A DNA stretch of 64,000 nucleotides, taken from NCBI GenBank assembly GCA_944383895.1, contig CALWRH010000004.1:86404-150403 (forward strand), given 5' to 3'. Positions 43,964 through 62,279 of this stretch are shown one piece after another (position 1 is the first letter of the stretch; each line of letters starts with the position of its first letter). A program made the position numbers and the translations under genes. The stretch comes from an uncultured Christensenellaceae bacterium. GTDB lineage: Bacteria > Bacillota > Clostridia > Christensenellales > UBA3700. The notes below the pieces were generated by a model that saw only the letters and a list, made by a program, of their open reading frames with translations, ran no database searches and had not been told where the DNA came from.

Positions 43964-45018
43964 TTTTTTTTACCTGCTTTTTCATAACTTTTAATAATGC
44001 TCTTCCCAATACATTCAGCCATAACAGGAGGAACAGCATTACCTATCTGCCTAGCAATATCAACTTTATTTCCAACAAACTCGAAATCTATAGGAAATGT
44101 TTGTAATAATGCACCCTCACGCAATGAAATACTACGATCCTGTATAGGATGACCAAATTTTCCTCTGGTAAAGCTATCAAATCTAGCTGTTATCGTAGGA
44201 GCGACATCGTCCCAAGCCATACGCCCATATACATTGCGAAATCCTATCACCGAACTATCAATTTTATGACAGTCTGCTAACAAATCATCTGGAAGATCAT
44301 CACGTCCTTGCCCCTCCTTAATAGCGCGAATCCGTTGCAAATTGCGTTCAGATAAATGATCGCGCCGATGAAGCGGTAACACTGGATGATCCGTTCCATC
44401 TTGCGGGGGCTCAGGAAGGTCTCCTATTGTATCACGAACCGTATGACGTATTCCTGTAGGTGCAGGATACTCGTAATAATTTCCAATGTCCTTTCGTTCG
44501 CCAATAACTATATATCTTTTGCGTCTCTGCGGAACACCATAATTTTGAGCATCTAAGAGCTCGATATGGACATAATAACCAATTTGTTCAACGTCTTCAA
44601 TAAGTTGCTGCAATATTGTCTTTCCACGTTTGCCGGCAATACCAGACACATTTTCCATAACAAAATATTTTGGATATAATTCATCAATTAAATTTCCATA
44701 CTTTAAAACTAGTCCGTTTCTTGAATCCGTATCACTACCTCTTCTCTGAACCGAAAAGCCTTGGCAAGGTGGACCTCCAGCTAATAAAAATAAATCACCT
44801 CGGCTAAGATTACAACGCTTAAGTAAGTTTCCATTAAGCATTTCTGCAATATCAGCAACAATGGCAGTATGATCAAAATACTTTTTATTTCTTTTTATTG
44901 TATCTATACATAGTTTATCTATATCAAAGCTCAATAAAATATTGAACCCTGCCCGCTCAAGCCCTAAACCTAGTCCTCCCGCACCACAGAAACTATCAAT
45001 ACAAGTATATTTAGTCAC
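43948..45018 (-). CDS. DNA cytosine-5 methyltransferase (M2)
   Basis: FCGAGG, GGPPCQGFS, ENV, QRRKR, QIGNAVPP. Confidence 0.93.
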   Translation of the reverse strand: MTKYTCIDSFCGAGGLGLGLERAGFNILLSFDIDKLCIDTIKRNKKYFDHTAIVADIAEMLNGNLLKRCNLSRGDLFLLAGGPPCQGFSVQRRGSDTDSRNGLVLKYGNLIDELYPKYFVMENVSGIAGKRGKTILQQLIEDVEQIGYYVHIELLDAQNYGVPQRRKRYIVIGERKDIGNYYEYPAPTGIRHTVRDTIGDLPEPPQDGTDHPVLPLHRRDHLSERNLQRIRAIKEGQGRDDLPDDLLADCHKIDSSVIGFRNVYGRMAWDDVAPTITARFDSFTRGKFGHPIQDRSISLREGALLQTFPIDFEFVGNKVDIARQIGNAVPPVMAECIGKSIIKSYEKAGKKKWHLM

Positions 45019-45020
45019 TC

Positions 45021-46340
45021 CTACACCCTCCCACGAGTTTTAATACCAGCAATAACACTTGAATATGAATTACTTACAGGCTCATTGATTGACTGAGGAC
45101 TATCATTTAACTCACATATGGTTGGAGATACAGACAACAATTCAATCAAAACACTAGCTGCAATAGCGGAAGACAGCATGGGCGGCACCGCTTCGCCGAT
45201 TTGTCTATATATATCATCGGATTTACCGCTAAACTCAAAGCCATTAGGAAAACTTTGAAGAAGTGCCGCTTCTCGTGCAGTAAGTCCGCGATCTTGTTCT
45301 GGATGAGTATATCGTCCACTTGCGGGGTTCCTTGCATAGTGCGTAATTGTAATTGATGGTTTATCCCAAAAAAGTCGTCCATACACATCTGAAAAGCCCT
45401 TCGTTTTATCTAAGCATTTAGGTCCAACCCCAGCAGGTCTATTTCCACCATTATGTGGAACCTTTTGAATAACCTCAATGGTGCTTTTTTTATGTGCAGC
45501 ACTTTTATGCATAGCATCATGTGGATCTGCAACGCCAGCCTCTACTGAAGGCAAATGACCAATAGCATCTCGCACAGTCCTATATTCCGAAGACTTCAAA
45601 TAGCCCGATGGTAATACAAAATTCTTTTTCATTCCGATTATAATTGAGCGGAAACGCTCTTGTGGAACGCCAAAAGCTGCCGCATTGTAAATATTTGCTT
45701 TTACAATATATCCCATTTCTTCATAGGTTTTTTTTGCGGCAGAAAAATATTTCCAATATCGCGTTGATAAAAATTCTGGTACATTTTCCATAAGTATAAC
45801 ATCCGGCTGAACTTTCTTAACAATCTCTGCAAAAGCCATAATTAAGCTGTTGCGAATATCATCCTCTTCGTTCCAGTGTTTTTTTCTATGTGAGGAAAAA
45901 CCCTGACAGGGAGCGCATCCAATCATAACGGTTGGCTTATTCTTGTCATATCCGATCATATCCAATAATGTCGTAAGCGCTCCATTTGCAAATGCCAAAT
46001 TGGTAATATCTTCATGAATAAGCGGCGTTCCAAAATTATGGCTATATGTCATTGCAGACATCTCGTTAACGTCACATCCTCCTAGCATTTTAAATGCAGG
46101 AATCACACTATTAAGTGCAGCAAATCCCAATGAAGTCCCCCCCGCTCCTGAAAAAAAATCTATCAATTGAATGGGGTTGTTTGCATAATCTAAACGTTGG
46201 ATAGGACAAAACTTCTCCAAGGCGAGTTGCGCGGCAGAAATCAACTGTTTGCTATATGGTCTAAAATCTAATGACTTACTTTTTCCTTGCAAAACATTTT
46301 TCATAAGCGTTATCCATGTCTCACACTCTCCTTTATTCAT
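45021..46340 (-). CDS. DNA cytosine-5 methyltransferase (M1)
   Basis: FSGAGG, GCAPCQGFS, ENV, QERFR, QIGEAVPP. Confidence 0.92.
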   Translation of the reverse strand: MNKGECETWITLMKNVLQGKSKSLDFRPYSKQLISAAQLALEKFCPIQRLDYANNPIQLIDFFSGAGGTSLGFAALNSVIPAFKMLGGCDVNEMSAMTYSHNFGTPLIHEDITNLAFANGALTTLLDMIGYDKNKPTVMIGCAPCQGFSSHRKKHWNEEDDIRNSLIMAFAEIVKKVQPDVILMENVPEFLSTRYWKYFSAAKKTYEEMGYIVKANIYNAAAFGVPQERFRSIIIGMKKNFVLPSGYLKSSEYRTVRDAIGHLPSVEAGVADPHDAMHKSAAHKKSTIEVIQKVPHNGGNRPAGVGPKCLDKTKGFSDVYGRLFWDKPSITITHYARNPASGRYTHPEQDRGLTAREAALLQSFPNGFEFSGKSDDIYRQIGEAVPPMLSSAIAASVLIELLSVSPTICELNDSPQSINEPVSNSYSSVIAGIKTRGRV

Positions 46341-46496
46341 ATATCGCCTCCATAATATTAGCTTTATGCCTTTTTCTTTGCAAATTCATAACTATTGTTT
46401 CTCTAGCATTGAAGTAAAAGTTGATCCTCATTTTCTTTTGACATTATACTTTGCCATATCGTTCTTATTTCTTTCATTTGGAAAGATAAATTGCTA

Positions 46497-46688
46497 CTAT
46501 TTATCAAATATAATATTGTTATTTTCGCAAAACTCTGCGAACTTGCGTTGCATGATATAGTTAGGATGCCTTACTCCATTCTCCCATTCGTTAACAGTTG
46601 AAAAGGCTACCCCCAATGTCTTTGCAAAATCTGCCTGACTTAGCATCAACTTCTGCCGAGCAAACTTAACCTTGTCTTTGTACTCCAT
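46497..46688 (-). CDS. Small XRE HTH protein (controller-like)
   Basis: LSQADFAKTLGVAFSTVNEWENG; upstream of the R-M operon. Confidence 0.85.
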   Translation of the reverse strand: MEYKDKVKFARQKLMLSQADFAKTLGVAFSTVNEWENGVRHPNYIMQRKFAEFCENNNIIFDK

Positions 46689-46785
46689 CAATATGTAACC
46701 CCATTTTATCTTAATAGTATTATTATAGCAGACTTATCGTAATAAATCAAGCTCCGATTGCCCCTTTAACTGGACTCCAAAAATC

Positions 46786-46817
46786 AATTTGCAACCCTTG
46801 CGTGTGTTTGTCTTGAT
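46786..46817 (+). repeat. 32-bp direct repeat, copy 1 (truncated nick-site copy)
   Basis: AATTTGCAACCCTTGCGTGTGTTTGTCTTGAT; 31/32 identical to 54163-54194. Confidence 0.9.
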
Positions 46818-47022
46818 TAGAGGTCGTTACAAATGACAAAAAGAGCAAGGGGCTCAAGACAACTGCTGTCTTTGCAATATATAGGTAAAAGATAGACAAA
46901 AAAGCGCGCACCTAAATTGCCTTGTGCGGAATAACAGGTATCCTTCCTAAAATTCATAATCTATTGCGTTTTCGCGGGGAACGTGCTACAATATAGCCGA
47001 AAAAGATACCAGGGGGAATTTT

Positions 47023-48423
47023 ATGTCAGATAAAAAAAATAAGGCACAGGAGCGTTACGATAAACTCGCCTATGTCAAGAAGAACTATTTTGAAGAGGCA
47101 TCCAAGAATGAGCGCAATGATATCTATGCCTATGCCGAAGGATACAAGGCGTTTCTCGATGCCGCTAAGACGGAGCGAGAGGCTTGTGTAGTGGCGGTTT
47201 CAAGGGCAAAGGAGCAGGGATTCACAGAATATCATTTTGGAGATGCGCTCGTTGCTGGCGACAAGAAGTATTTTGTCAACCGTGGTAAATCTGTTGTCGT
47301 ATTCCGTGTCGGGACACGCAATCTTGAGACGGACGGCATGCGCCTTATCGCCTCGCACATCGATGCACCTCGCGTTGACATCAAACAGATCCCGCTATAT
47401 GAGGACAGTGGCATGTGCTATCTCAAAACGCACTATTACGGCGGCATCAAGAAATATCAGTGGACAGCGATCCCGCTTGCGCTACACGGCATCGTCATTC
47501 TCAAAGACGGCACAAAGGTCTCTATCAGAGTGGGAGAGAATACCAAGGATCCAGTGTTCTACATCGATGACCTGCTTCCGCACCTCAGCGGTGAGCAGAT
47601 GGCAAAGATAGGCGGCAAGATCATTGAGGGCGAACAGCTCAACGTAGTAGTCGGCGGTTTGCCCCACGCTGATGCCGAGGCTGGCAAGCGCATTAAGTAC
47701 ACTGTGCTCGACTATCTAAACAAGGAATACGGCATGTGCGAGGAGGACTTCATCTCCGCAGAGCTAAGTGCCGTTCCCGCATATTCCGCACGCGACATTG
47801 GCTTTGACCGTGCCTTTATCGGCGCTTATGGCCACGATGACCGCGTCTGTGCATATACCGCACTTACCGCCGTCCTCAACAATGAGAGCGAGCACACCGT
47901 GCTTGCCATGCTTGTTGACAAGGAAGAGATCGGCAGCGAAGGCACGACGGGGATGCAGTCTAAGATCTATGAGGATCTCATGGAGGACATTTGTGCGGCG
48001 CTCAGTGCAAACTTTCGCAAAGTGCGCTATGCATCCAAATGCCTTTCTGCCGACGTGACCGCCGCATTCGACCCCAACTTCTCGGGTGTCTTTGAAAAGC
48101 TAAACGCCGCAATCGTCTCCTGTGGGACCTGCATGAGAAAGTTTACGGGTGCACGTGGAAAGAGCGGTTCCAACGATGCTTCTGCCGAATTTGTTGCTGA
48201 AGTCCGCAAGATATTCGATAAAGAGGGTGTCATATGGCAGACCGCAGAGCTCGGCAAAGTGGATGTGGGAGGCGGCGGTACGGTGGCAAAGTTTCTCGCC
48301 AAGCTTAACATCGACACCATCGATCTGGGCGTTCCCGTCATCTCCATGCACGCGCCTTGGGAACTCATCTCCAAGGCTGACCTCTACAGCAATTATCGCG
48401 CATTTCTCGCTTTTATGAAATAA
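47023..48423 (+). CDS. M18-family aminopeptidase
   Basis: KTERE, SHIDAPR, THYYGGIKKYQW, GHDDRVC, DKEEIGSEG, SADV, GGGTVA, SMHAPWE; promoter TTGCGT-N17-TACAAT at 46964-46992. Confidence 0.92.
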   Translation: MSDKKNKAQERYDKLAYVKKNYFEEASKNERNDIYAYAEGYKAFLDAAKTEREACVVAVSRAKEQGFTEYHFGDALVAGDKKYFVNRGKSVVVFRVGTRNLETDGMRLIASHIDAPRVDIKQIPLYEDSGMCYLKTHYYGGIKKYQWTAIPLALHGIVILKDGTKVSIRVGENTKDPVFYIDDLLPHLSGEQMAKIGGKIIEGEQLNVVVGGLPHADAEAGKRIKYTVLDYLNKEYGMCEEDFISAELSAVPAYSARDIGFDRAFIGAYGHDDRVCAYTALTAVLNNESEHTVLAMLVDKEEIGSEGTTGMQSKIYEDLMEDICAALSANFRKVRYASKCLSADVTAAFDPNFSGVFEKLNAAIVSCGTCMRKFTGARGKSGSNDASAEFVAEVRKIFDKEGVIWQTAELGKVDVGGGGTVAKFLAKLNIDTIDLGVPVISMHAPWELISKADLYSNYRAFLAFMK

Positions 48424-48852
48424 CGCGGCGCAGCGGGCATCTTCCTGTAAAATTGCCCTTTTCCACATGAGCGGCACTTACGCTGTCATGCCGTTCATTC
48501 AAACGAAGTCGTTGCCGGTTTCAGATATGCATGTAACCAGAAAACATGTCGGTAAAATACTCGGTATATTCCGAACGTATTTTTATGGTTGCTTTGTAAA
48601 AAGTGCCAATAAGGGTATGATCATTGCAGGAAAAAGAAAGAACGAATAATGTTTTGAGAAGATGCAAATAGGCGCAAGAGCTACAAAGCAAATTCGTAAA
48701 GGAAAACTAGAGGGGGTGTTCTGTTGTCGGAACACTTCCCAGTTTTTTTGTACTTATAGGGGGATAAAATTCAAATTTATTCAATAGAATTTTCAAAATA
48801 TTTATTACACAGTAGCGTCAATCCTGCAATTATTAAAAATGCTTGATCCCAC

Positions 48853-48881
48853 TTGACAAAATTAAAATTTTTAGGTATAAT
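48853..48881 (+). promoter_or_regulatory. Consensus sigma-A promoter of precursor 1/rSAM1
   Basis: TTGACA-N17-TATAAT. Confidence 0.8.
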
Positions 48882-48902
48882 TTATTCATAGGAGGTAATA
48901 TT

Positions 48903-49004
48903 ATGATTTTTTATGACGATATTGAAACATCGTATGCTGCTGATTGCAAGTGCGATGACTATTGTTCCGATTGTCCCAATAATTCAACTGGTTGCGATGA
49001 ATAA
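48903..49004 (+). CDS. Putative RiPP precursor 1 (33 aa): MIFYDDIETSYAADCKCDDYCSDCPNNSTGCDE
   Basis: Translated by hand; AGGAGGT RBS; 5 Cys; followed by hairpin 49011-49038 and a radical SAM gene. Confidence 0.8.
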   Translation: MIFYDDIETSYAADCKCDDYCSDCPNNSTGCDE

Positions 49005-49066
49005 CGCACGTACTCTCTCCTACACTAGGGGGAGAGTATATTATTTTTCAAGGCTTATATTGTATC

Positions 49067-50341
49067 ATGAATTACAAGAAATCTTTATATAATCTGCTTA
49101 TTCCTTATACCAATAATGAAACCATCATTTTTAACTCTTTTACTGGTGCTATTGGAAAACTTGATAAAAACACCTTAAAGCATTACAATGAAAATCAATT
49201 TTCAGAAACAGAAATTGAGATTCTTTCCAAAAAGGGAATATTAATACCCGTTGATTTAGATGAAAAGAGTAAAATTAACAGTGAAAGAAAAAAAGGCATT
49301 GAAAATAACCATGCGAAACTTTTTAGAATTTGGCCCACCTCTGGTTGCAATGCAAGATGTTATTACTGTTTTGAAAAAGGCATAAAAATTACTAATATGT
49401 CGAAAAAGACGGCAGATGATGTAGTCAATTTCATTGATAATACACTAAACGAAGAAGATGTTTTAAGATTAGAGTGGTTTGGTGGGGAGCCGCTTTTAAA
49501 TGTCGAAATAATTGATTACATCATGGATAAATTAAATATTATCTGCGCAAATAAACGGTGTGAAATTCAGAATTCCATGATAAGCAACGGAAGTTTGATT
49601 ACTGAAGATTTAGTATTAAAAATGAAAAACAAATGGAATATACAATCCATCCAAATCACTTTAGATGGTTATGACTCAACTTACAACCAAATAAAAAATT
49701 ATTATAATCCAGTTACTTGCAATTTTAAAAAAGTGATTGAAGCTATAAAATTACTTTCTAAAAGTGGCATAAAAACAGCTATCCGTATGAATTACGATAC
49801 AAAAAATTATCAGAGTCTTGTAGAATTAATCGAATTTTTACATATAGAGTTAAGTGGATATAAAAAGCTAATATATTATGTCTTTCCTGTTTGGAGTTCC
49901 ACTGATGAATATGCCGAAAATTCATATTCTTCCACTACTATAGCAGATATGAACTTATTGTCATTATTTGACTTATTAGTAAAATATCGAATGAGTACCA
50001 TCAAAGCCATAGCTCGACTTAATTATAAAGCACATGCTTGTCAAGCTTGGAATCTTCATAGTTATGCAATTTTACCCAATGGCGACATTGCTAAATGTTG
50101 TGAATCGTACAATCAAGTGATTGGTTCTGTTACACAAGGGATTACAGATATAGACACATATAATTTTTGGACAACTTCAATTTTAGAAGAAAAATGCGAT
50201 TCATGTATTTACCTGCCTCTTTGTCAAGGTGGCTGCAAGTCATCCTACTTTAATAGAATGCCGCATTGTTTTGCCTTTAAACCAATTATCAACGAAATAC
50301 TAAAATGGTATGTTTCTTACTTAGACAACCAATGTAAATGA
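49067..50341 (+). CDS. Radical SAM/SPASM peptide maturase 1
   Basis: CNARCYYC, WFGGEPLL, ITLDG, SPASM cysteines (CQA...KCC...CDSCIYLPLCQGGC...C); N-terminal RRE-like segment. Confidence 0.9.
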   Translation: MNYKKSLYNLLIPYTNNETIIFNSFTGAIGKLDKNTLKHYNENQFSETEIEILSKKGILIPVDLDEKSKINSERKKGIENNHAKLFRIWPTSGCNARCYYCFEKGIKITNMSKKTADDVVNFIDNTLNEEDVLRLEWFGGEPLLNVEIIDYIMDKLNIICANKRCEIQNSMISNGSLITEDLVLKMKNKWNIQSIQITLDGYDSTYNQIKNYYNPVTCNFKKVIEAIKLLSKSGIKTAIRMNYDTKNYQSLVELIEFLHIELSGYKKLIYYVFPVWSSTDEYAENSYSSTTIADMNLLSLFDLLVKYRMSTIKAIARLNYKAHACQAWNLHSYAILPNGDIAKCCESYNQVIGSVTQGITDIDTYNFWTTSILEEKCDSCIYLPLCQGGCKSSYFNRMPHCFAFKPIINEILKWYVSYLDNQCK

Positions 50342-50419
50342 ATTCAATCCCGATTTTGGTTAAAATCAAAGAAATGGGGGTTTTATATCTAATTGTGATT
50401 GTACAAATTTAATCGATCT

Positions 50420-50811
50420 TTATCTTTTTTGACGAATTGAACAATAATTAATATAACACTTTAAAATGTTACCTAATATTGGCTTATATACAAAATATTT
50501 AGGCTTTCTTGTAAAATTTGATGTTTTATAACCACCTTGACAGATGGGTTAATACATAATATCTTTACATTTTTTTTATCATCGATTCCCTGTCTTCTAT
50601 CGTTATTAACCTTAAGACTCTCATTATAATTATTGAGAACAATAATTCCTTTCCTTAATAAAATAGAGCTTCTTGCAAAAGATTTAACGAATTATATCTT
50701 TCCATTAAATTATCTTCAAATAAACCAATTACGCCAGATAAAGTATCGAATATTATTGTCTTAACAGCCAAAGGGAATAAACAAGTTGTATCTTGATTTT
50801 TTATACTTAAT
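50420..50811 (-). pseudogene. Internally deleted, frameshifted paralog of radical SAM 1
   Basis: Fragments KYKKSRYNLFIP / KTIIFDTLSGVIG / ILLRKGII...NNDRRQGIDD...CINP / CQGGYKTS...YKPILGNILKCY match the N- and C-termini of 49067-50341; start reads ATT after GGGAG. Confidence 0.8.
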
Positions 50812-50828
50812 CGTTTCTCCCTACTTAC

Positions 50829-52139
50829 TTAAGAAGTATATTTTTTGCCTTTAGAAATATATTCTAAAACTTGATTCTTAATCTTAGCTAATAAAGCATT
50901 ATATATCAAACAGTTCCCGTTCTTTACAGAACAATCATAGATACCAAAACATTCACACTGACATGCTGGATATAAATCACATGTTTGACATCCCAAATTC
51001 ATATTGCCCATAGCACTTTGTTTTTGAGCATCATTGTAATATAATCCATCAAAAATAGATCCTATGACTTTATTCCCCAACCCAATATAATGCTCACATT
51101 TATACAATTCTCCACTTGGACCTATAACGAAATTATTTTTCTTTGCCATCCCACAAAAAACTGGCTGAAAAAAAGGGGGCCGTTCTACTGATTGTTTAGG
51201 ATATAGGCTTTCTTGTGAAAGTTTATTATAAAATCTTTTTTTTACAAGGGAAAATTCATCAACAAAATAACAGTTTCCACATAAATTATCAATATAGTCT
51301 CTAATATTGGAAAGACTGATTTTTATTTTCCCTTTAAGCCCTAAACCTTTCAATAAGTAATATGCTAATTTATAAAGTTCATGCAAATTTTTTTTATCAG
51401 CGTTCAGTCTAATGGTAACTGTTAATATATCCGCTATTTCTTTTATGTTATTTACAACGATATAAAAATTATTTTTATCCGTTCTTTTTCGCATTGCGTA
51501 CGTTTCGCTAAATCCATCTAAGGTAATTTGCACGCGATTAATTCTTGCATCAGTAACTAATTTTTCAGCACGCTCTCTAGTTAATAATAATCCATTAGAA
51601 ATCATACTTGCATTATACTCAATCCCCAATGGCTTAAGTAAGCATAAAAGTCTTTCACTAATATTTAATATCAAATCATAGCAAAGCATTGGCTCCCCGC
51701 CAAACCAACAAATCTTAAGCTTTTTGATGCTTTTCTTGTTTTTTATCGTTTTAACAATAAATTGTATGACTTTATCCGCAGTTTCGGTCGTCATTACAAC
51801 TTCTTTATCGCTGTTCGCCTCAAAGCAATAAACACAATTCATATTGCATTTCATTGTAGGAGCAATAACATAAGACAACGAATCTACCTGATCAGATTGC
51901 AATTTAGAATGCATTATATATTTAGCTTTAAAAAATTCATTTTGACAATTTGGTACTAGAAAACCTTGCCTTATTAAATCATAATGAATTTTTTCAGAAC
52001 ATTGAATTTTTTCCCCCAATAATTCTTGATATATAACATTTTCCAATCTAACAATTGAACCAGAAAAAGTATTATATAAAATGACAGTATTTTCATCTTG
52101 AGAAATCTTAATAGAATACTTTGATAGTTTATAAATCAT
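50829..52139 (-). CDS. Radical SAM/SPASM peptide maturase 2
   Basis: CNMNCVYC, WFGGEPML, QITLDG, CG...GELYKC...CQTCDLYPACQCEC. Confidence 0.9.
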   Translation of the reverse strand: MIYKLSKYSIKISQDENTVILYNTFSGSIVRLENVIYQELLGEKIQCSEKIHYDLIRQGFLVPNCQNEFFKAKYIMHSKLQSDQVDSLSYVIAPTMKCNMNCVYCFEANSDKEVVMTTETADKVIQFIVKTIKNKKSIKKLKICWFGGEPMLCYDLILNISERLLCLLKPLGIEYNASMISNGLLLTRERAEKLVTDARINRVQITLDGFSETYAMRKRTDKNNFYIVVNNIKEIADILTVTIRLNADKKNLHELYKLAYYLLKGLGLKGKIKISLSNIRDYIDNLCGNCYFVDEFSLVKKRFYNKLSQESLYPKQSVERPPFFQPVFCGMAKKNNFVIGPSGELYKCEHYIGLGNKVIGSIFDGLYYNDAQKQSAMGNMNLGCQTCDLYPACQCECFGIYDCSVKNGNCLIYNALLAKIKNQVLEYISKGKKYTS

Positions 52140-52142
52140 CTT

Positions 52143-52331
52143 TTAGTCCCTATCACACATATCGCATCCATCACAGAAACAATTATCACAATCACAGCTA
52201 CAATAATAATCGCAATTACAGTCATCGCAATCGCAACGACAAGGCCAATCATGACTGTCAGGACAATCATCGCGATTCAACCAACAATCACCAACACTTA
52301 ATAAAATACCCGTTTCTAAAATAATATCCAT
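52143..52331 (-). CDS. Putative RiPP precursor 2 (62 aa, 14 Cys, CxCD repeats)
   Basis: MDIILETGILLSVGDCWLNRDDCPDSHDWPCRCDCDDCNCDYYCSCDCDNCFCDGCDMCDRD; AGGAG RBS; TTGACA-N17-TATCAT promoter near 52407. Confidence 0.82.
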   Translation of the reverse strand: MDIILETGILLSVGDCWLNRDDCPDSHDWPCRCDCDDCNCDYYCSCDCDNCFCDGCDMCDRD

Positions 52332-52580
52332 TATTCTTCTCCTGATCATATACACATAAAACATTATTGTGTGAGAAAATGATATCATAAGAAAACTACT
52401 TTGTCAATGTGCAACGTAGTTTTCTAATTTTTTCGAATCAGCCTCAAAAATATCACCTTTTACTTAGCGACACCATGGCACAGAACTGCGGTATAACTAA
52501 AAATAAACCGCATAAAAAAGACAAGCATTCCATCTATTATCAACAAGTACTTTTATGTTTTACTAATATGCAATAATACT

Positions 52581-53792
52581 TTATTCATTATGCATCCAAC
52601 GTCCCTTTTTAGGAGAGTAAAAGCAACGAGGATTCTTTTGTTTAATACTTCCCGCAGCTATACCTAAAGGTCTACAATCCTTGCAAGCATATCTAAATTC
52701 ACATTGTTTACATTCATCCAATTTTGAAAAATCATAATGCCAAAAATTTTTACATGCATTTGAGTTTAATATTTCAAATATAGACTTATCTTTCACATTT
52801 CCATATACTATTTGTCGTTCAAAAACACACGGCAATACATCTCCTGTTTCACTTACAACAAATTTTCCATACCAACATGTATTTCTTTGTTGTGCAGCAT
52901 GAAACCTTTGCTCAGATATTGAAAAACGAGGTTTCGTTCTACATTTTAGTTCAATTAGATCTTTCCTTGTTGCCTCATGAAATTTATCCCCACAACTTTT
53001 TACAGATCTAACTAAATCAAATTTATATTTTTTTATGCCAAGCTCTCTAATAAATTTAATCGTATCGTTATAGTACTCTTCATTTTCACGCATGATTGAT
53101 ACAGCTATTGTAATAGATAAATTATTGTCCAACATCCTATGTATATTATCAACCGTTTTATTAAAGCTGCCTTGCGTTAAAGTTATAGCATCATGAATTT
53201 GAGCATTAGGTCCATATAATGACACATTGATACGGACAGAATTTCGAACGAAACATTTTAACAACTCGTCATGTAAAATTGTGCCGTTTGTGAAATACGA
53301 AATGCTTTTAAAGTTTAAGTTTCCTGCATAATCTATCAATTTAATAATTTCATTACAACACGAAGGCTCCCCTCCGATAAACTGAATATGCTTACAATTC
53401 AATGTGTTTAATTGATCAAGAACCAAAAACCATTCTTCTGTTTTTAACTTATTGCTTTTTGACTCATGAGTTATACCCTCATAGCAATGTATACATTTAA
53501 GATTGCAGGACTGCGTAACTTCAAGCCAACAAAAATTTATTTCTGTATCAAATTCTTCTTTAAAATTAAATTCTTTATAGCTATATTCAGGATCAATTAA
53601 TTCTTTGGAATATAGCTCGTACAAATATCGTTGCTCATCAATATTTTCTACACGATTTGTTTCTATATAATTTTTAAGAAAAACACAGGCTTCGTGATTT
53701 ATAGCATAAATCCTACTTCTTTTAAAATCATATATTGCACCATTAACGGCTCCAAATACTACTGCTGTTGTTTTAGAAAGAGAAATTACCAC
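52581..53792 (-). CDS. Radical SAM/SPASM peptide maturase 3
   Basis: CNLKCIHC, FIGGEP, VSLYG, CWYGK...LPCVF...CKQCEFRYACKDCRP...C. Confidence 0.9.
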   Translation of the reverse strand: MVISLSKTTAVVFGAVNGAIYDFKRSRIYAINHEACVFLKNYIETNRVENIDEQRYLYELYSKELIDPEYSYKEFNFKEEFDTEINFCWLEVTQSCNLKCIHCYEGITHESKSNKLKTEEWFLVLDQLNTLNCKHIQFIGGEPSCCNEIIKLIDYAGNLNFKSISYFTNGTILHDELLKCFVRNSVRINVSLYGPNAQIHDAITLTQGSFNKTVDNIHRMLDNNLSITIAVSIMRENEEYYNDTIKFIRELGIKKYKFDLVRSVKSCGDKFHEATRKDLIELKCRTKPRFSISEQRFHAAQQRNTCWYGKFVVSETGDVLPCVFERQIVYGNVKDKSIFEILNSNACKNFWHYDFSKLDECKQCEFRYACKDCRPLGIAAGSIKQKNPRCFYSPKKGRWMHNE

Positions 53793-53812
53793 AACACACC
53801 ACTCCTACAGAA

Positions 53813-53840
53813 AAATAAGCAACAATATTGTTGCTTATTT
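53813..53840. promoter_or_regulatory. Perfect 28-bp palindrome between precursor 3 and rSAM3
   Basis: AAATAAGCAACAAT|ATTGTTGCTTATTT. Confidence 0.6.
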
Positions 53841-53856
53841 ATTTCTGATCAATTAG

Positions 53857-54036
53857 TTAATCTGGATTACAATCACCATAGTCTGGTCCGCAATTCCCCG
53901 AAGGAGCATCTTCAGGCGAGCATATATCAGGATTACACCACCCACTATCTGGGTTACATGTGCTTGGATCATCATATGAAGGATTACACATTGTAATTAC
54001 TCTAACGGTATCAGTAACATCTTCTAATAACAACAT
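53857..54036 (-). CDS. Putative RiPP precursor 3 (59 aa, six CxP repeats)
   Basis: Translated by hand: MLLLEDVTDTVRVITMCNPSYDDPSTCNPDSGWCNPDICSPEDAPSGNCGPDYGDCNPD; GAGGTG RBS; TTGACA-N17-TATACT promoter at 54082-54054. Confidence 0.82.
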   Translation of the reverse strand: MLLLEDVTDTVRVITMCNPSYDDPSTCNPDSGWCNPDICSPEDAPSGNCGPDYGDCNPD

Positions 54037-54162
54037 AGTTCACCTCTATTTATAGTATACAACATCTTAAATTATATGTCAATACATATAAACATCTTTT
54101 ATTACAGATATCTTACGCAAAGCAGAATATATAATAAGTATCGTAAACAAGGTAATTAATTT

Positions 54163-54330
54163 AATTTGCAACCCTTGCGTGTGCTTGTCTTGATACGAGA
54201 GCGCCGGCACTGCGTGCCGTCGCGACAAGCACACGCAAGGCTGAAATCAGCAGGATAAATCAAACAAAGCGCGACGGAAGCGGAGTCGCACGCTGAACCG
54301 CTTTTTGCGACTTCCGCTTTTCCGTCTCGC
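54163..54330 (+). other. Putative rolling-circle double-strand origin (includes direct repeat copy 2)
   Basis: Stem CCTTGCGTGTGCTTGTC...GACAAGCACACGCAAGG enclosing CTTGTCTTGATAC, similar to the pC194/phiX174 nick motif CTTG/ATA; second hairpin at about 54270-54330; lies just past the rep stop. Confidence 0.7.
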
Positions 54331-54367
54331 GGCATTTTGTTTTTGACGTATATCCTTTTACTGTATT

Positions 54368-55402
54368 TCAGTTGCCTTTGCGCAATTTTTCTATTACGTC
54401 CTTGCTTACTGGTCCAATATACTCGCCCTCGTCCCAGCATATGAAGTTGTCAAAGAGCAATAATTTCGATTCCTCAACACCGATTTTGCAGACAATATCG
54501 TCATCTTCGATATCAGAGTAAAAGAATTGAGGAAGACCTTTCGAATACACGATCTTCTCTCCTGTCTTTTCCATATACTTTGCCAGATATGCTATTGCGC
54601 TGCCGAGATCGGTTTTGCTGTCAACCGCCTTAAAATCAGATCTGCCGAAACGTTCGTTGAAGTACGTATTCTGGGTCGTGACCTGCACTTTGTCTTTTAT
54701 CGGAGAATAGTCTTTAACGACTATCAGTTCACCAGGCATGCTTCCATCTGGAATATAGAACAAACCGTGAAAATGCAGTCTTTTCTTTTCCGGAGACCTC
54801 TCCCAAACCCCGGCATACTTCCATTTCTTTCTGTGACACATCATCTTGAAACAACATCTCAACTTTTTCTTAAAATCGCTTTCGGACAGTTTTGACCCGT
54901 CATAGGTAAACGTGCAGAAGTAATTAAACTCCTGCAAATTTATCTTTCTTGTCAACCTGATACGCCGGCAGATAAGATTGCGTTGCTTTCTCTCAAACTG
55001 ACTGTCAACATAAAGCTTCGCAGTCTTTCTATCTTTGAAATACGGAAGCATCTCTTTGAGAATACAACTCTTTCGTTCGTTTCTTTTCAAGTTAATGTTT
55101 TCAGCATATAGTCTTTCAAACATCTCCTTTTTAGTTTCCGCTCTTAGCTGTTGACCAGATGCTTTTTTACTGTCATAGTTGTCGCTCGCAGTTAAATCGG
55201 CATCATTTTCAATCTCTTCTTTATCGACAGAAAAAGGCAGTTCGTCAGTTTCCACCTCTTGACACTCCGACTTGATATCTCCTGTTAAAGAATCTATCTC
55301 ATCGTCAATCTGAACAGACCTTTTTTTCGCAGGACGTTCCGTGTGCGGAATAGCAATATAATGACTTCCGTCAAAATAAACTTTGCAGTTGCTGTACGGC
55401 AT
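54368..55402 (-). CDS. HUH rolling-circle replication initiator (two-Tyr type)
   Basis: Motif I FCTFTY, motif II RLHFHGLF, motif III YLAKYMEK; AAGGAGGTG RBS. Confidence 0.85.
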   Translation of the reverse strand: MPYSNCKVYFDGSHYIAIPHTERPAKKRSVQIDDEIDSLTGDIKSECQEVETDELPFSVDKEEIENDADLTASDNYDSKKASGQQLRAETKKEMFERLYAENINLKRNERKSCILKEMLPYFKDRKTAKLYVDSQFERKQRNLICRRIRLTRKINLQEFNYFCTFTYDGSKLSESDFKKKLRCCFKMMCHRKKWKYAGVWERSPEKKRLHFHGLFYIPDGSMPGELIVVKDYSPIKDKVQVTTQNTYFNERFGRSDFKAVDSKTDLGSAIAYLAKYMEKTGEKIVYSKGLPQFFYSDIEDDDIVCKIGVEESKLLLFDNFICWDEGEYIGPVSKDVIEKLRKGN

Positions 55403-55414
55403 ATTATCACCTCC

Positions 55415-57523
55415 TTATTTTACGTCTTTATACAGAGTGTTAATGAAATAACTGTTCTGCATTTTGAGTTCCTCAACGGTAGCCTTTTCGGATGCGTATT
55501 CGAGATAATCGCTCAGCCCGACGTTGGTCTTCTTCGCCATATCGTTGAAGTAGTCGGAAAAACAGTCTGTCGAAAAACGACGCGAGTAAATCTTCTTGTT
55601 CATCAGATAATACTTTTTCTTCTCGCACCGGGCATTCATTGTGCCGCGTTCTTTTTCTATACGCAAAGAACAGTAACCGAACCTGTTGTACAGCCTGATA
55701 TTGCGCCTCCAAAGCCACGAAGTAACAGTCTTTAGAAGATAGACCAGCAAAGTGTTGTCTCCTCGCTTAAAACGGAAATCGTAGTACAGAGAAATAAAGC
55801 GGTTAAAGAACCACTCGCTTATCATCTCCTCAATGGTATAGAAAGGCATTGCAAGCCTCTGTTCGCTCGAATCCACAATATGGATAATATCGCACAAATC
55901 TCTTGCGTCCGCTCCCCAGGATTCCGGTCTCTGTTCGTCCGTAAAAACTTTGATAAAAGGATAATTGTCTATCGTCGCGCTGTGACGGCACATTTTCAGC
56001 CAACTGTTGAACAAGTCGTTCTTCTGATTCGTTTCATCTGTACCTTTCTTAACTTCCTTTAATTCAAGATTATTTCCGCGCTCCTTTCCGATCTCAGATA
56101 TGGCTATTACACCAAACTCAAAGCTGCCTGTTTTCGGGTTGTTTTCTATCAGCTTTTTACCTAGTCGCAAAGCGTCGAAATCTATGATATGTGCGTGTCT
56201 TCCGTCAGTGATGCCTTCCGGGAAAAAGTCCATTACCCAGACAGGAAAATTACCACGGTCTAACAGCGTATTATCTACACGGACAGAATAATTTGACACG
56301 ATAAGACTGCTTTCCGTAACGTAGACGAAATACGCTAATGCGTATGTCTTCAACACGTCGAAAAGGGCGCAGACTTTGAGTGCGTCGTTATAATAAAAGC
56401 CGTACCTCTCGACGTCGTAACCGTACAGTTGCAAGTCGGCGTTTTCGTGCCTCTCAAACCGTTCTCTTTTCTTCTTGATCCACTCCTTGACGGTAGCAAG
56501 ATTATATACCGTTCCGTACTCGATACAGAGTCTTAATTCGTCCTCAAACGCTATCCACGGGAAGTATGGAAACTTCATATCGTTGTCCTGCAAAATCTTG
56601 TACGCCTTCTGACGGAACATTACTTCCTGAGAAAGTGCCATATCGGTAATCAATGTCGTTTTCTTCTTTCCCATGCTTCCGCAGGATATGGACACAATGG
56701 GAACTTCATTGATAAATCCGCAGTTCTTTGCCTCGAAATATCGTAGCGTAGAATCAGCTATATTCTTTCTGATCTTATCAAAAATCAGCCATGCGACAAT
56801 ACCTATGATCCACCACGGGAAAGCCTTGAATATCACCTGCAAGTCGATAAACAGTTTGCATATTTGCAGATACAGCGTGTCTATCTTATACGATACCGCG
56901 AAGTAAAAATAATACGCGAAAAACTCCACGATAATCGAAGCTATGTTGAGATTGAAACACCATATCGCCACCCATAAGACGATCAACACGTTATGCTCCC
57001 TGAGATAACCGATATAGTTTACTATATACCGCTTTAACGGCTGGTACGTCACGTTAGATACCTTCTTGAATATGCGTAATGGCAGAGTGTCTTCATTGTG
57101 TCTCGTGTTGTCTTTGCTGTACAGTTTCTTGATAATGAAAAACAAGATAAGAGTACACGGCAGCGCAATGACCAATGCCTTCGCTATGTTTCCCGTAGTT
57201 CTTCCGCTATGAACGAGCCAGGACTTGAAATTGTTCTCGTCTACCAGAAGCGAGAAATAGGCTTTTGCCTTCTGCGTAAAGCTCTCAAAATCGGCAGGCA
57301 GAAGTATATTCCAGGACATTACGTCCGAACGGCTTAAAACCGTGGCTTCCACGCTGTATCTTATCCCGAATATCTCGCAGAAGTATATCCGGACGCTGTT
57401 CCAGAGATCCTTTGCGCTCTCGGCAAATCGAAGGTACGACGTATCGAAAACGAAGAAAGCCAAAGCGACAAAAGTAGCCGTCAGAACAAAGCTCGTTATT
57501 ATGTTAGATACTTTGTATTTCAT
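55415..57523 (-). CDS. Multi-TM P-loop ATPase, Zot/inovirus pI-like
   Basis: Several N-terminal TM helices, Walker A-like GSMGKKKTT, IAISEIGK, KMCRH, DEQRP; adjacent to Rep. Confidence 0.6.
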   Translation of the reverse strand: MKYKVSNIITSFVLTATFVALAFFVFDTSYLRFAESAKDLWNSVRIYFCEIFGIRYSVEATVLSRSDVMSWNILLPADFESFTQKAKAYFSLLVDENNFKSWLVHSGRTTGNIAKALVIALPCTLILFFIIKKLYSKDNTRHNEDTLPLRIFKKVSNVTYQPLKRYIVNYIGYLREHNVLIVLWVAIWCFNLNIASIIVEFFAYYFYFAVSYKIDTLYLQICKLFIDLQVIFKAFPWWIIGIVAWLIFDKIRKNIADSTLRYFEAKNCGFINEVPIVSISCGSMGKKKTTLITDMALSQEVMFRQKAYKILQDNDMKFPYFPWIAFEDELRLCIEYGTVYNLATVKEWIKKKRERFERHENADLQLYGYDVERYGFYYNDALKVCALFDVLKTYALAYFVYVTESSLIVSNYSVRVDNTLLDRGNFPVWVMDFFPEGITDGRHAHIIDFDALRLGKKLIENNPKTGSFEFGVIAISEIGKERGNNLELKEVKKGTDETNQKNDLFNSWLKMCRHSATIDNYPFIKVFTDEQRPESWGADARDLCDIIHIVDSSEQRLAMPFYTIEEMISEWFFNRFISLYYDFRFKRGDNTLLVYLLKTVTSWLWRRNIRLYNRFGYCSLRIEKERGTMNARCEKKKYYLMNKKIYSRRFSTDCFSDYFNDMAKKTNVGLSDYLEYASEKATVEELKMQNSYFINTLYKDVK

Positions 57524-57650
57524 AGGCAATCCTTCCTGATAGTGCAACAGTTTCGACAGATAGTCGGCTACCTGTGTAAACGAGATAACCGACCAGAGCT
57601 GCGATTGCGACCAAGAGGAGAATTGCGATTATCCTCTTAATCTGTTTCAT
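57504..57650 (-). CDS. Small single-TM protein (48 aa)
   Basis: Translated by hand: MKQIKRIIAILLLVAIAALVGYLVYTGSRLSVETVALSGRIAYEIQSI; AAGGAGGAG RBS; fills the gap between genes. Confidence 0.7.
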   Translation of the reverse strand: MKQIKRIIAILLLVAIAALVGYLVYTGSRLSVETVALSGRIAYEIQSI

Positions 57651-59051
57651 TTACTCCTCCTTTTTTCGTATTTTCTTGATTGCTTTTGCAATCCCTTTGA
57701 TAACGGCGCCGATGAGCTTGAACGGCAGCGTTATAAGCCAGATAACCAGCTTGATTATGTACGGCAAGACAGGAGCGCATAGGATTATGAAAAGGATTAT
57801 GATTACAAGCAAGATAATCGTGCCTGCGAGTTTCGCCCAGTCCATATCGTCAAAAGACGGCAATTCCCACTCGTTTGTGTTTTCGTTATCAGGAAGCTGT
57901 CCAGGCGCAACCGTTTGTTTGTTATCGACTACTCCGAGATTATAAACAACCCCGTCCGTCTCGAATTTTAACCGCAAAATGGTAACGTCGTTTACTTTGG
58001 TAGACTGTTCCGTAAACGAATTAGAGCCTTGAACAAACGAGTAATCGGCTTCGTAAAAGCGCAGAACCCAACTCTTATTTTCAAGATCTGCAAGTCCTTC
58101 GTCAGTCAGTTCCTCATTTTCAATAAACTCGTCAACGCTTTCTATGCGTTTCCATGTGTACTTTTTCGCAAACAGTCCGCCGCCTTCGTGTTCAACTACG
58201 GTATCGTATGTAAGCGTTAATTCGTGTTCCTCCGCATCTTCATAAGTCATAGTGTCCTCTCCGGGATCCAACTGCGCCCAATTCGGAGTACGGTGGTAAT
58301 ACCTGTAATCCTGCGTTACGAAGTAGATGTCTGCTTCGTACAAATTGTCGATAGGCAGATCCGTATCAAAAGCAACGAAATACGCAAGGCAGGACGAGGC
58401 ACACAAGTCAAATCCGTTAGAATACTTCATGTATCCAACGTATTTGTCCGTGATCTCTATCACCTGTGTTTCGATGCAAGAATAGGACACCTGTCCGTTC
58501 AGCGTAACTGCCGTAAACAGTTTTGCGACCTTGAAAGACACTTCCGATATTTCGTTCTCGTTGGTTTCAGATAATCCGGCATCAACGTCCTTGTCGTACT
58601 TACGGAAGATAGACGATATGTCATAGTACCTCAACACGTCTTCTTTGACTGTAAAGTCGCTGACTCGGTACTTACAGAATACTCCGTCTTTGCTGAGCAA
58701 TTCCAGCTTATAGTTTTTATAATACAAGCTGTCGTTGATCGCCGTAGATATATTGATAGACGTTGCCGCATAGTCTTTTACTCCGTTAGACGGTTGATAG
58801 ACGTAGACAAGAAGTTCTCCGTCTGTACTTTCGGCTATCTGCACGACTTGCAGGCTGTAATCCTTTTCGTTAGCCGGATAAAGGCTTTCGTCAAAGTTTG
58901 CATCGCTTTTCAGGTCGTCGACAGGACTGCTGTATTCAACACCTTCCAAAGTCGCCGCATACGCTGTCGCAGGAAACAAACCTGTCAACAGCGATAAGCA
59001 AACGACAAGAAGAAGTGCGAATACGACATATCTTTTGTATAAATTCGTCAT
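57651..59051 (-). CDS. Secreted protein with C-terminal membrane anchor (pIII-like topology)
   Basis: Signal peptide ending AYAA; long C-terminal hydrophobic and amphipathic basic tail. Confidence 0.7.
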   Translation of the reverse strand: MTNLYKRYVVFALLLVVCLSLLTGLFPATAYAATLEGVEYSSPVDDLKSDANFDESLYPANEKDYSLQVVQIAESTDGELLVYVYQPSNGVKDYAATSINISTAINDSLYYKNYKLELLSKDGVFCKYRVSDFTVKEDVLRYYDISSIFRKYDKDVDAGLSETNENEISEVSFKVAKLFTAVTLNGQVSYSCIETQVIEITDKYVGYMKYSNGFDLCASSCLAYFVAFDTDLPIDNLYEADIYFVTQDYRYYHRTPNWAQLDPGEDTMTYEDAEEHELTLTYDTVVEHEGGGLFAKKYTWKRIESVDEFIENEELTDEGLADLENKSWVLRFYEADYSFVQGSNSFTEQSTKVNDVTILRLKFETDGVVYNLGVVDNKQTVAPGQLPDNENTNEWELPSFDDMDWAKLAGTIILLVIIILFIILCAPVLPYIIKLVIWLITLPFKLIGAVIKGIAKAIKKIRKKEE

Positions 59052-59066
59052 ATCGCACCTCCTCGT

Positions 59067-59666: not shown

Positions 59667-59677
59667 AGGCGTACTCC

Positions 59678-60953: not shown

Positions 60954-60954
60954 C

Positions 60955-61848: not shown

Positions 61849-61862
61849 GTTTTACCTCCTTT

Positions 61863-61899: not shown

Positions 61900-61917
61900 A
61901 CGTTGTTTTATTGCGCT

Positions 61918-62274: not shown

Positions 62275-62279
62275 GTGTT

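Follow-up and report, generated by a model that had tools for sequence, protein, structure and literature searches.

Three putative precursor/radical SAM-SPASM maturase units and the wreck of a fourth as probable low-GC cargo at the end of a Rep element

Anaerobes abound in gene pairs for a small peptide and a radical S-adenosylmethionine (SAM)/SPASM enzyme that come without an exporter or a protease; SCIFF is an example, and what such pairs are for has long been asked. SCIFF is a two-gene unit made of a Cys-rich peptide and an enzyme in which a RiPP recognition element (RRE; RiPP, peptide made by ribosomes and modified after translation) is joined to radical SAM and SPASM domains, and it is found as a conserved single-copy chromosomal pair in Clostridia. 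Here we describe a locus of a chicken-gut bacterium (genome G000; 18 contigs, 1,847,687 bases, approximately 1.85 Mb) that was analysed within a window of 64,000 nucleotides (nt), C4:86404-150403, whose own numbering is used below. Positions 48853-54082 contain three two-gene units, each consisting of a small acidic Cys/Asp-rich open reading frame (ORF; U1, U2, and U3) and its own radical SAM/SPASM enzyme (E1, E2, and E3). The locus is probably a tandem array of three autonomous RiPP units and the wreck of a fourth, belonging to three uncharacterised families and carried as low-GC cargo at the end of a Rep element.

Among solved enzymes, CteB of the SCIFF system is the best relative of E1 and E2 by profile, and of E1 also by fold. 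The array differs from SCIFF in the leaders and Cys/Asp cores of U1 and U2, and its units are patchy in distribution, multi-copy and borne as mobile cargo. E3 resembles SkfB, AlbA, and StsB, whose models all match it and which share the N-terminal RRE and a Cys-bearing peptide substrate; however, the E3 substrate is a Cys-x-Pro repeat peptide, which resembles none of theirs, and unit 3 has no ABC transporter or immunity gene. The families CefB (NF038107), TIGR04463, geopeptide (TIGR04280), and Clo7bot (TIGR04334), maturases of Cys-rich peptides, align with E1 and E2 over their full length, but at 136-184 bits against cut-offs of 400-600; to our knowledge, these four families are defined by genomics only. 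The anaerobic sulfatase-maturating enzyme (anSME), whose target motif contains Cys-x-Pro, has the radical SAM/SPASM fold and the seven-Cys SPASM domain in common with E1-E3, but it has no RRE-like N-terminal domain, and no sulfatase gene lies in the island described here. The genome's own anSME-like gene is on contig C2, beside a sulfatase-like ORF. The PapA/PapB system, the source of the Cys-to-Asp β-carbon ranthipeptide freyrasin, is similar to the array in its repeated Cys...Asp motifs and acidic core. According to one study, PapB joins Cys to Asp or Glu in Cys-X3-Asp and tolerates Cys-Xn-Asp with n = 0-6 (PMC9413430), a range that would cover the array motifs Cys-Asp, Cys-x-Cys-Asp, and Cys-Asn-Pro-Asp. 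Alignment to the PapB model covers the catalytic portion of E1 and E2, which differ in having about 90 extra N-terminal residues and in a substrate spacing other than Cys-X3-Asp.

The interval 48.8-54.1 kb holds six genes and one gene wreck only, with no further free-standing ORF of at least 60 amino acids (aa; Table 1). A preliminary description of this DNA had proposed three precursor/maturase units with different enzymes, each behind its own near-consensus TTGACA promoter, and hairpins between precursor and enzyme in units 1 and 3. E1 and E2 are 28% identical, and E3 falls on another branch. When 48400-54400 was scanned for promoter-like sites, scored as matches out of 12 consensus positions, 55 sites were found (shuffles: mean 33.5), and the three best-scoring are exactly those preceding the U1, U3, and U2 precursors (12, 11, and 11 matches; ranks 1-3). 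The two hairpins (z -6.4 and -5.2) both score in a scan for terminator-like sites, with a U-run after each, and the one following U1 is probably a leaky terminator. Since promoter ranks and hairpin folds agree with them, the observations and coordinates of the preliminary description are correct; its interpretation is supported in part. In unit 2 no hairpin was found between peptide and enzyme (z +0.9), and the precursor stops 3 nt ahead of the E2 ATG. The precursors read MIFYDDIETSYAADCKCDDYCSDCPNNSTGCDE (U1), MDIILETGILLSVGDCWLNRDDCPDSHDWPCRCDCDDCNCDYYCSCDCDNCFCDGCDMCDRD (U2, taken from the ATG after AGGAG), and MLLLEDVTDTVRVITMCNPSYDDPSTCNPDSGWCNPDICSPEDAPSGNCGPDYGDCNPD (U3); net charges were computed at pH 7. 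As had been noted before, no exporter, C39 peptidase or immunity gene is present inside the array coordinates, and the flanking genes that were scanned gave no transporter or peptidase family. The statement on peptidases holds for these coordinates; the gene of an M18 aminopeptidase lies just upstream and travels with the array.

Table 1. Features of the array, of the adjoining Rep element and of the cargo slots beside related Rep copies (window positions; strand + or -)
Feature	Position	Strand	Remarks
Second partial copy of the Rep end	46786-46817	-	Right arm only; direct repeat of the last 32 nt (54163-54194)
M18 family aminopeptidase	47023-48423	+	466 aa; NF002600 633 bits against cut-off 529; PF02127
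U1 promoter-like site	48853-48881	+	TTGACA, 17 nt, TATAAT; 12/12 consensus, best of 55
U1 precursor ORF	48903-49004	+	33 aa, 5 Cys, 7 Asp, net charge -8.5; AGGAGG before ATG
U1 hairpin and T-run, precursor-E1 gap	49010-49039	+	-18.3 kcal/mol, z -6.4, 0/200 shuffles as good
E1 radical SAM/SPASM maturase (predicted)	49067-50341	+	424 aa, RRE-like N-terminus, PF04055
Remnant of a fourth, E1-type maturase	50423-50811	-	N- and C-terminal pieces, in-frame stops, radical SAM core deleted
E2 radical SAM/SPASM maturase (predicted)	50829-52139	-	436 aa, PF04055
U2 precursor ORF	52331-52143	-	62 aa, 14 Cys, 16 Asp, net charge -14.5
U2 promoter-like site	52407-52379	-	TTGACA, 17 nt, TATCAT, TG before -10; 11/12 consensus
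E3 radical SAM/SPASM maturase (predicted)	52581-53792	-	403 aa, GTG start, RRE-like N-terminus, PF04055 and PF13186
U3 palindromic hairpin and T-run, precursor-E3 gap	53813-53840	-	-17.7 kcal/mol, z -5.2, 0/200 shuffles; opposite-strand self-match
U3 precursor ORF	54036-53857	-	59 aa, net charge -11.5; Cys-x-Pro six times, with Asp or Glu after five of them; AGGTG upstream
U3 promoter-like site	54082-54054	-	TTGACA, 17 nt, TATACT; 11/12 consensus
Conserved Rep-element end, long hairpin	54150-54245	-	-46.1 kcal/mol, z -5.9
Rep protein, ORF2/G2P type	54368-55402	-	344 aa, PF23343 E 4e-11
Membrane protein with P-loop, conserved Rep partner	55415-57547	-	710 aa; no Pfam, NCBIfam or PHROG match
Rep slot L013 (start of a contig of this genome)			Type II methyltransferase and restriction endonuclease
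Rep slot L221 (MT835493.1)			SspA/B/C, BrxP, PbeA
Rep slot L011 (G011)			DrmB and NERD-helicase
Rep slot L012 (G014)			Tmn
Rep slot L015 (contig C9 of this genome)			GajB-like helicase, then radical SAM gene

The small ORFs are unusual within the genome. A filter for ORFs of 25-110 aa from the first Met, with at least 5 Cys, at least 10% Cys, and at least 20% Asp plus Glu, was applied to all six frames of the whole genome and left four ORFs only, namely U1, U2, U3, and one on contig C9. All four directly adjoin a radical SAM gene, and the pairing of precursor and enzyme is therefore not due to chance.

Relatives of the three units show the same arrangement. Loci with E1-type enzymes (44-57% identical) contain one to three U1-like small ORFs, upstream or downstream of the enzyme, in 16 of 19 cases; in the other three the enzyme is cut by the contig start. 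U1-like ORFs start with M-x-F-F/Y followed by two acidic residues and end in a Cys/Asp-rich core, and M1, F3, C17-D18, and C31-D32 are invariant among 14 aligned U1-type precursors. A profile of the U1 family gave 23 matches at E<=0.001 against 1.84 billion representative proteins, 22 of them proteins of 30-67 aa aligned end-to-end. The E2 family is rarer than the E1 type (top relatives 46, 45, and 43% identical). Its close relatives in G325 and G025, both genomes from this order (loci L223 and L224), are accompanied by four and three precursor ORFs, respectively, which share an M-E/K-I-L-I leader and Cys-x-Cys-Asp cores. In the case of E3, an ORF with at least three Cys-x-Pro motifs is present in 10 of 13 loci with full-length relatives, and is directly adjacent to the enzyme in eight. 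The combination of a Cys-x-Pro ORF and an E3-type enzyme occurs in Lutispora thermophila, Selenomonas ruminantium, and metagenome-assembled genomes (MAGs) of Bacteroidota, Patescibacteria, Nitrospirota, and Latescibacterota. Among 67 more distant E3-type loci the pattern is seen in 11, as scattered ORFs in GC-rich DNA, and these occurrences are taken as chance. In three Bacteroidota and Patescibacteria MAG loci (L018, L020, and L021) the Cys-x-Pro precursors lie downstream of the enzyme and have the leader M-F/E-E-L-K-K-V-T. The Cys-x-Pro precursors thus comprise at least two leader subtypes across phyla.

A conserved leader, a variable core, and a co-inherited enzyme, the marks of a RiPP pair, were thus found in 16 of 19 E1-type, both close E2-type, and 10 of 13 E3-type loci. 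No NCBIfam or Pfam model matched the U1-U3 precursors. By these comparisons, all three peptides are real genes. The short leader and Cys/Asp-rich core described earlier are present in all three precursors, but what the relatives of unit 3 conserve is Cys-x-Pro and not Cys...Asp. It is very improbable that the small ORFs are unexpressed or encode unmodified metallothionein-like peptides, with the neighbouring radical SAM genes incidental or a relic. Their Cys/Asp-rich composition does fit metal binding, and one unit of the array has already decayed; yet peptide and enzyme co-occur over many loci and phyla with family-specific leader motifs, none of the three enzyme genes is damaged or has lost a cluster ligand, strong promoters and ribosome-binding sites precede the ORFs, and metagenomes from other studies retain the array (in run X6, 7 kb with 57 differing letters and 6 gaps).

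The three enzymes belong to the radical SAM superfamily (PF04055; E 2.6e-20, 1.2e-13, and 8e-19 for E1, E2, and E3, respectively), with the CX3CX2C cysteines at C94/C98/C101 in E1, C98/C102/C105 in E2, and C96/C100/C103 in E3. A SPASM domain, whose seven conserved Cys serve two auxiliary 4Fe-4S clusters, is indicated by seven invariant C-terminal Cys in each of the three family alignments. The nearest NCBIfam models are CefB, TIGR04463, geopeptide, Clo7bot, and PapB for E1 and E2, and AhbD, NirJ, PqqE, AlbA, StsB, and SkfB for E3, and none is reached at its cut-off. The best model for E1 is CefB (179.6 bits against 600; TIGR04463, 163.5 against 525), for E2 TIGR04463 (183.7 bits against 525; CefB, 157.6 against 600), and for E3 AhbD (111.6 bits against 500). 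PapB (NF047865, cut-off 340) scores 99.6 bits with E1 and 107.1 bits with E2, and it is missing from the top 25 models of E3. The SCIFF maturase (TIGR03974, cut-off 425) scores 53.3 and 59.4 bits with E1 and E2, and the sactisynthases AlbA (NF012164), StsB (NF045574), and SkfB (TIGR04403) score 73.9, 72.1, and 66.8 bits with E3 against cut-offs of 850, 625, and 300. For anSME (TIGR03942, cut-off 349) the scores are 49.8 (E1) and 48.5 bits (E2), and the model is absent from the 25 best of E3.

In profile searches of the PDB, CteB is the best match of E1 (3.6e-27) and E2 (1.8e-26), and SkfB that of E3 (5.7e-25); anSME follows ten or more orders of magnitude behind the best matches (3.4e-13 for E3). 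AlphaFold2 models of E1 and E3 (predicted local distance difference test, pLDDT, 92.1 and 89.3) have an N-terminal domain of three strands plus helices ahead of the TIM-barrel core, with strands at residues 9-15, 18-23, and 28-33 in E1 and 9-13, 18-22, and 27-31 in E3. Foldseek places CteB (5why, E 1.1e-18), TigE, and SuiB at the top for E1, and SkfB (6efn, E 3.4e-18), SuiB, and CteB for E3, with anSME among the neighbours of both models (E 4.6e-15 for E3). The Pfam PqqD model gave no match to E1-E3 at E<=0.01, and the assignment to RRE-dependent maturases is made from the structure models. The preliminary description had named grouping with anSME as an outcome that would count against it; the enzymes do not group with anSME, their nearest solved relatives being CteB and SkfB, and they have the RRE-like N-terminus.

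Binding of the leader is supported by a model of the complex between E1 and precursor 1, which scores 0.76 with the best of three controls at 0.01; this mark is reached by 58 of 80 solved complexes and, among 110 mismatched pairs, by 2. At least 44% of contacts are common to the runs, with a partner pLDDT of at least 51, and peptide residues 1-15 contact E1 residues 26-33, 36, 49, 52, and 56, lying on the strand 26-33 and the helix 49-56 of the N-terminal domain. Taken by sequence relationship, E1, E2, and E3 are three uncharacterised families of a known kind of precursor/maturase system, in line with the earlier proposal: NCBIfam scores lie far below cut-offs, the precursors match no model, and no paper on the three families or on RiPP-carrying Rep elements was found, although literature coverage was incomplete and the dataset of PMC10288494 (3,421 clusters) may list members.

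The minimal format extends to the relatives. Neighbouring genes were tallied for the 25 most frequent families, in E1/E2-type loci from 10 of the 19 E1-type loci (near-duplicates and stubs dropped) plus both E2-type loci. For the 69 neighbour ORFs of these 12 loci, neither ABC_tran nor Peptidase_C39 appears in the list of 25 families, and each of the 15 unlisted families has at most one member; recombinases, an integrase, a restriction enzyme, IS200/IS605, a holin, and amidases do appear. The 94 neighbour ORFs of the 13 E3-type loci include two ABC_tran and three Radical_SAM members and many housekeeping families. Because the neighbours of relatives show no linked exporter, the exporter-less two-gene format is a family trait, as in SCIFF, and not a peculiarity of this locus. 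In L109 an E1-type unit ends a tailed-prophage-like region, between a holin/endolysin pair and two serine recombinases, and the same unit is present on the IMG/VR contig L176. A non-coding element shared by L096, L109, and L176 was considered and ruled out, as blastn found none. A viral scan with the E3 alignment gave one weak relative only. Another multi-maturase array may be seen in the metagenome contig L152, where five ORFs with radical SAM motifs stand in a row on one strand at approximately 4.8-11 kb.

From this anatomy a working scheme can be proposed. Each σ70-type promoter would drive the precursor behind it. A hairpin acting as a leaky terminator would let only some of the transcripts of units 1 and 3 run on into the enzyme gene, so that peptide would be plentiful and enzyme scarce, and in unit 2 the enzyme would be translationally coupled to the peptide. 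The leader is expected to dock as a strand on the RRE-like domain of the enzyme, as modelled for unit 1 and presumed for the other two. The radical SAM core would then take hydrogen from the acceptor residue, and the Cys thiol, held at the SPASM auxiliary cluster, would close a thioether, so that the repeats would become small rings. By analogy with the nearest characterised enzymes, E1 and E2 would form links from Cys to the β-carbon of Asp, of the ranthipeptide type: the invariant Cys-Asp pairs, together with the Cys-Xn-Asp tolerance of PapB, point to Cys-Asp links. E3 would join Cys to a neighbouring residue, more likely at the α-carbon, as in sactipeptides, since the non-conserved acceptor and the affinity to SkfB, AlbA, and StsB suggest position-defined links. 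The products would be compact, protease-resistant, strongly acidic peptides.

Rather unlikely, but most plausible for E3, is that one or more of the enzymes make no thioethers and instead convert Cys to formylglycine, epimerise, or form a C-C link at Cys-x-Pro. Only Cys and Pro are invariant in E3-family cores, anSME is a structural neighbour of both models, and, according to PMC10288494, near relatives in the E3 branch do varied chemistry, sactisynthases sharing a clade with enzymes of C-O, C-C, and rearrangement chemistry. However, the best solved match of E3 is the thioether former SkfB (E 5.7e-25 against 3.4e-13 for anSME). The radical SAM motif of E3 starts at residue 96, behind the RRE-like domain, and its substrate has a leader, whereas the anSME chain aligns from residue 13. 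The repeated residue is Cys, as in all thioether RiPPs.

The base composition and distribution of the array set it apart from its host. GC is 0.29-0.32 over 49-54 kb against 0.41-0.51 in flanking bins. By DNA search the island was found in 0 of 14 same-genus genomes and was not found in 30 relatives. E2-type genes occur in 0 of 20 same-family genomes and in 17 of 401 genomes of the order, this genome included. On these grounds the array is imported low-GC cargo adjoining the end of a multi-copy Rep element, which supports the mobile setting given in the preliminary description. The gap of 487 nt between E1 and E2 contains the remnant of the fourth maturase: blastx pieces correspond approximately to residues 1-94 and 375-428 of family members, tblastn gives 50% identity over E1 residues 375-418, and blastn matches E1-type genes of other loci. 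The array thus turns over, as shown by the decay of a fourth maturase gene.

The island also occurs outside the assembly. At least half of its sequence words occur in runs from five studies besides the possible source, all of them gut or chicken-gut metagenomes. Four metagenome runs were mapped to the island: in X6 one contig runs across 46801-53811 with 57 differing letters and 6 gaps, in X3 all 30 bins are covered, and X20, labelled RNA but probably DNA, yielded scattered contigs only; stretches left uncovered in X2 and X20 carry no weight. The two copies of a Rep-end repeat are places where contigs of X3, X6, and X20 begin or end (all three begin at 46792-46808).

This repeat belongs to the conserved end of the Rep element. 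When six Rep ends are aligned, conservation passes through a long hairpin and stops at 54163, with variable cargo beyond. The last 32 nt of the end match twice in the window, whereas 100 shuffles gave 0 matches, and the two copies bracket a 7.4-kb segment holding the M18 gene and the array. This sequence may be an origin, a recombination site or a cassette boundary. Rfam gave no match at E<=0.1 over 44-64 kb, and the hairpin is accordingly of no known RNA family. No direct repeat of at least 16 nt links the recombinase end of the element (62-75 kb) with 44-55 kb. The Rep gene is present in four copies in this genome and matched in 26 of 74 family genomes, with up to eight matches in one; three same-genus genomes have the element at 71-81% identity, and it shows 53-64% protein identity in GenBank MT835493.1, where the 710-aa partner protein is 64% identical. 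Genes assigned to the element lie at 54368-64000 and beyond, to approximately 67.2 kb; it also encodes several membrane proteins without family match, a sigma-like protein, and, past the window end, a LexA-like repressor and a large serine recombinase. Apart from the sigma-like protein and a weak tail-protein match, PHROGs left Rep, the 710-aa protein, and their neighbours unmatched. The element may be a filamentous-phage-like element of Bacillota. An Atlas lead from the 710-aa protein to PF05707 (Zot) stands at 0.88, under the 0.9 mark, and for this reason 'inovirus-like' is a lead rather than a finding.

The place directly after the Rep end serves as a cargo slot. In the first five related copies, all slots hold proteins matching PADLOC models (Table 1). 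One of them belongs to a second Rep copy of the same genome (C9:56034-57023; locus L246:5366-6741), after which come a UvrD helicase of GajB-like type, an XseA-like fragment, and a PapB-sized radical SAM/SPASM gene. The enzyme has 357 aa with no N-terminal extension (PapB model NF047865, 65.3 bits), and directly after its gene lies an ORF of 99 aa with 22 Cys and many Asp. Thirteen further slots from nine genomes contain no radical SAM gene with a Cys/Asp-rich ORF, and hold methyltransferases, other enzymes, sigma-factor/surface-protein sets, and integrases; their PADLOC matches are to DNA methyltransferase models only, 3-4 of 80 ORFs. The slot takes mixed cargo, and defence genes are frequent there. 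On the other side of the segment, left of the second repeat copy, a low-GC defence island (38338-46691) encodes a PDC-S06/LmuB-like ATPase (766 aa, E 2e-112), a type ISP-like methylase-nuclease (1082 aa), two C-5 cytosine methylases, and a small helix-turn-helix regulator, so that the array resides among defence genes on both counts, with the reservation that the 13 further slots are mixed. E1-E3 correspond to no known defence system of PADLOC 2.0; pVip alone matches them, weakly and over its generic radical SAM portion, with E-values between 1e-13 and 1e-19.

With no dedicated exporter or leader protease in the three families, the peptides are probably cytoplasmic; they might otherwise leave by lysis or general routes, and leaders would be trimmed by general peptidases, the M18 enzyme being a candidate only. 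For products acting inside the cell, the preliminary description had named metal binding, nucleic-acid mimicry, defence, and anti-defence as candidate functions. The role would be an accessory one tied to mobile elements. A possible but unlikely form of it is anti-phage defence or counter-defence inside the cell on behalf of the mobile element, with the acidic peptides as nucleic-acid mimics or inhibitors of phage proteins. The array lies directly after the conserved Rep end, in the slot where PADLOC-matched proteins were found in the first five Rep copies examined, with the ATPase and methyltransferase genes on the other side of the segment and, at the C9 copy, a GajB-like helicase next to a PapB-sized radical SAM gene and the 99-aa ORF; the units also lack an exporter. 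There is a precedent, according to a preprint, in lanthipeptide clusters that lie in defence islands and guard Streptomyces against phages (10.1101/2024.06.26.600839). These lanthiphages resemble the array in placing RiPP genes among defence systems on variable islands, but the RiPP class, enzymes, and phylum are others, and anti-phage activity is shown there. The argument is, however, one of guilt by location: the 13 further slots lack a radical SAM peptide unit and several are non-defence, PADLOC matches among neighbours elsewhere are sparse (19 families at 1 of 69 ORFs each, 23 families at 1-2 of 94 each), E3-type units often lie among housekeeping genes, and the PADLOC matches of E1-E3 themselves are weak and due to the generic part of pVip. 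A bolder version is slightly less likely still. In it, a family of Rep-bearing, possibly inovirus-like integrative elements of small-genome gut Bacillota swaps anti-phage systems at its hairpin slot, two such slots of this genome hold exporter-less RiPP units in their place, and the hyper-acidic, thioether-knotted products would be a new class of cytoplasmic peptide effectors of anti-phage defence or counter-defence. If it were true, the Cys-x-Pro, M-x-F-F, and M-E-I-L-I families would, like SCIFF, be intracellular RiPPs rather than secreted antibiotics.

The peptides could also be secreted as bacteriocins or signals through an exporter and a leader protease encoded elsewhere, or be freed when the element or a prophage lyses the cell, which is improbable to a similar degree. 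Thioether RiPPs related to the nearest relatives of these enzymes, e.g., SkfA, are exported toxins or signals, an E1-type unit adjoins the holin/endolysin pair in L109/L176, and the M18 gene travels with the array, as the X6 contig spans both. Many RiPPs use host proteases outside the cluster, including aminopeptidase trimming, according to the accessible text of a review (PMC10885120). On the other hand, no double-glycine or other recognisable export leader is present, the U1 leader having only about 14 residues; no immunity gene is found at the array, and none of the three families has a linked transporter. With net charges of -8 to -15, the peptides differ from most membrane-active bacteriocins. 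The M18 genes of three other genomes are not beside radical SAM units. Taken together, defence and secretion or release each receive a small share of the likelihood, and the remainder, which is the larger part, goes to other intracellular roles, as for SCIFF.

The M18 gene itself has a host-like GC of 0.51 and is followed by a terminator-like site (48712-48739) ahead of unit 1. It is present in 0 of 18 same-family genomes and has relatives of 48-57% identity in 3 of 12 other families, and it apparently arrived together with the cargo. The neighbour families listed for E1/E2- and E3-type loci do not include Peptidase_M18, and the term 'M18' occurs 0 times in the accessible text of the leader-protease review (PMC10885120). 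As a claim, a dedicated leader peptidase was rejected; it is kept as a lead, the M18 genes of G025, G019, and G021 having ordinary neighbours.

Several observations weigh against the interpretation of the locus as an array with the proposed chemistry and setting. As all NCBIfam scores are far under their cut-offs, the enzymes belong to no characterised family and their chemistry is extrapolated; the Pfam SPASM model PF13186 matches E3 only. Cys-x-Pro recalls the anSME target motif. E3-family cores keep only Cys and Pro, with Asp or Glu after Pro as a Bacillota feature, and an Asp acceptor therefore cannot be general for E3. The start codon of U2 was picked by its ribosome-binding site, and the ORF is open for 19 codons further upstream. 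Since CteB and SuiB have solved structures of such complexes, the docking result for E1 is likeness rather than proof. At six catalytic-site positions of CteB, defined in PMC10288494, E1 has F, F, I, T, C, E and E2 has F, F, I, T, E, H where CteB has F, F, T, S, H, Q, so that two of six residues (Phe, Phe) match, with one Ser-to-Thr change. The link to defence is weaker in the wider slot sample and at other loci of the three families.

What would be new in the preferred reading of a tandem array of RiPP units is the stacking of three undescribed families as independent units in a mobile-element slot shared with defence systems. The occupants of the slot elsewhere (restriction, phosphorothioate, DISARM-like, Tmn, and Gabija-like genes) suggest, as a lead, a role related to phages. 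Even if the role is an ordinary one, the locus adds a new family of cargo-carrying elements in the chicken gut and three precursor/maturase families that are likewise new. The three units are compact from promoter to terminator and have defined leader motifs and clear relatives. The very short leader of U1, with its dense small-ring motifs, may be of interest for peptide engineering, and the Cys-x-Pro repeat family, which spans several phyla including Patescibacteria, appears undescribed.

Two smaller observations concern the surroundings. Rep or its partner genes were found near E1-type units at 0 of 125 loci elsewhere (L096-L220). Farther upstream in the window, GC falls after a tRNA-Ser gene (32469-32557), to 0.32 at 33-34 kb, where an ORF of 383 aa follows (32758-33909, minus strand), and this place may be another integration site.

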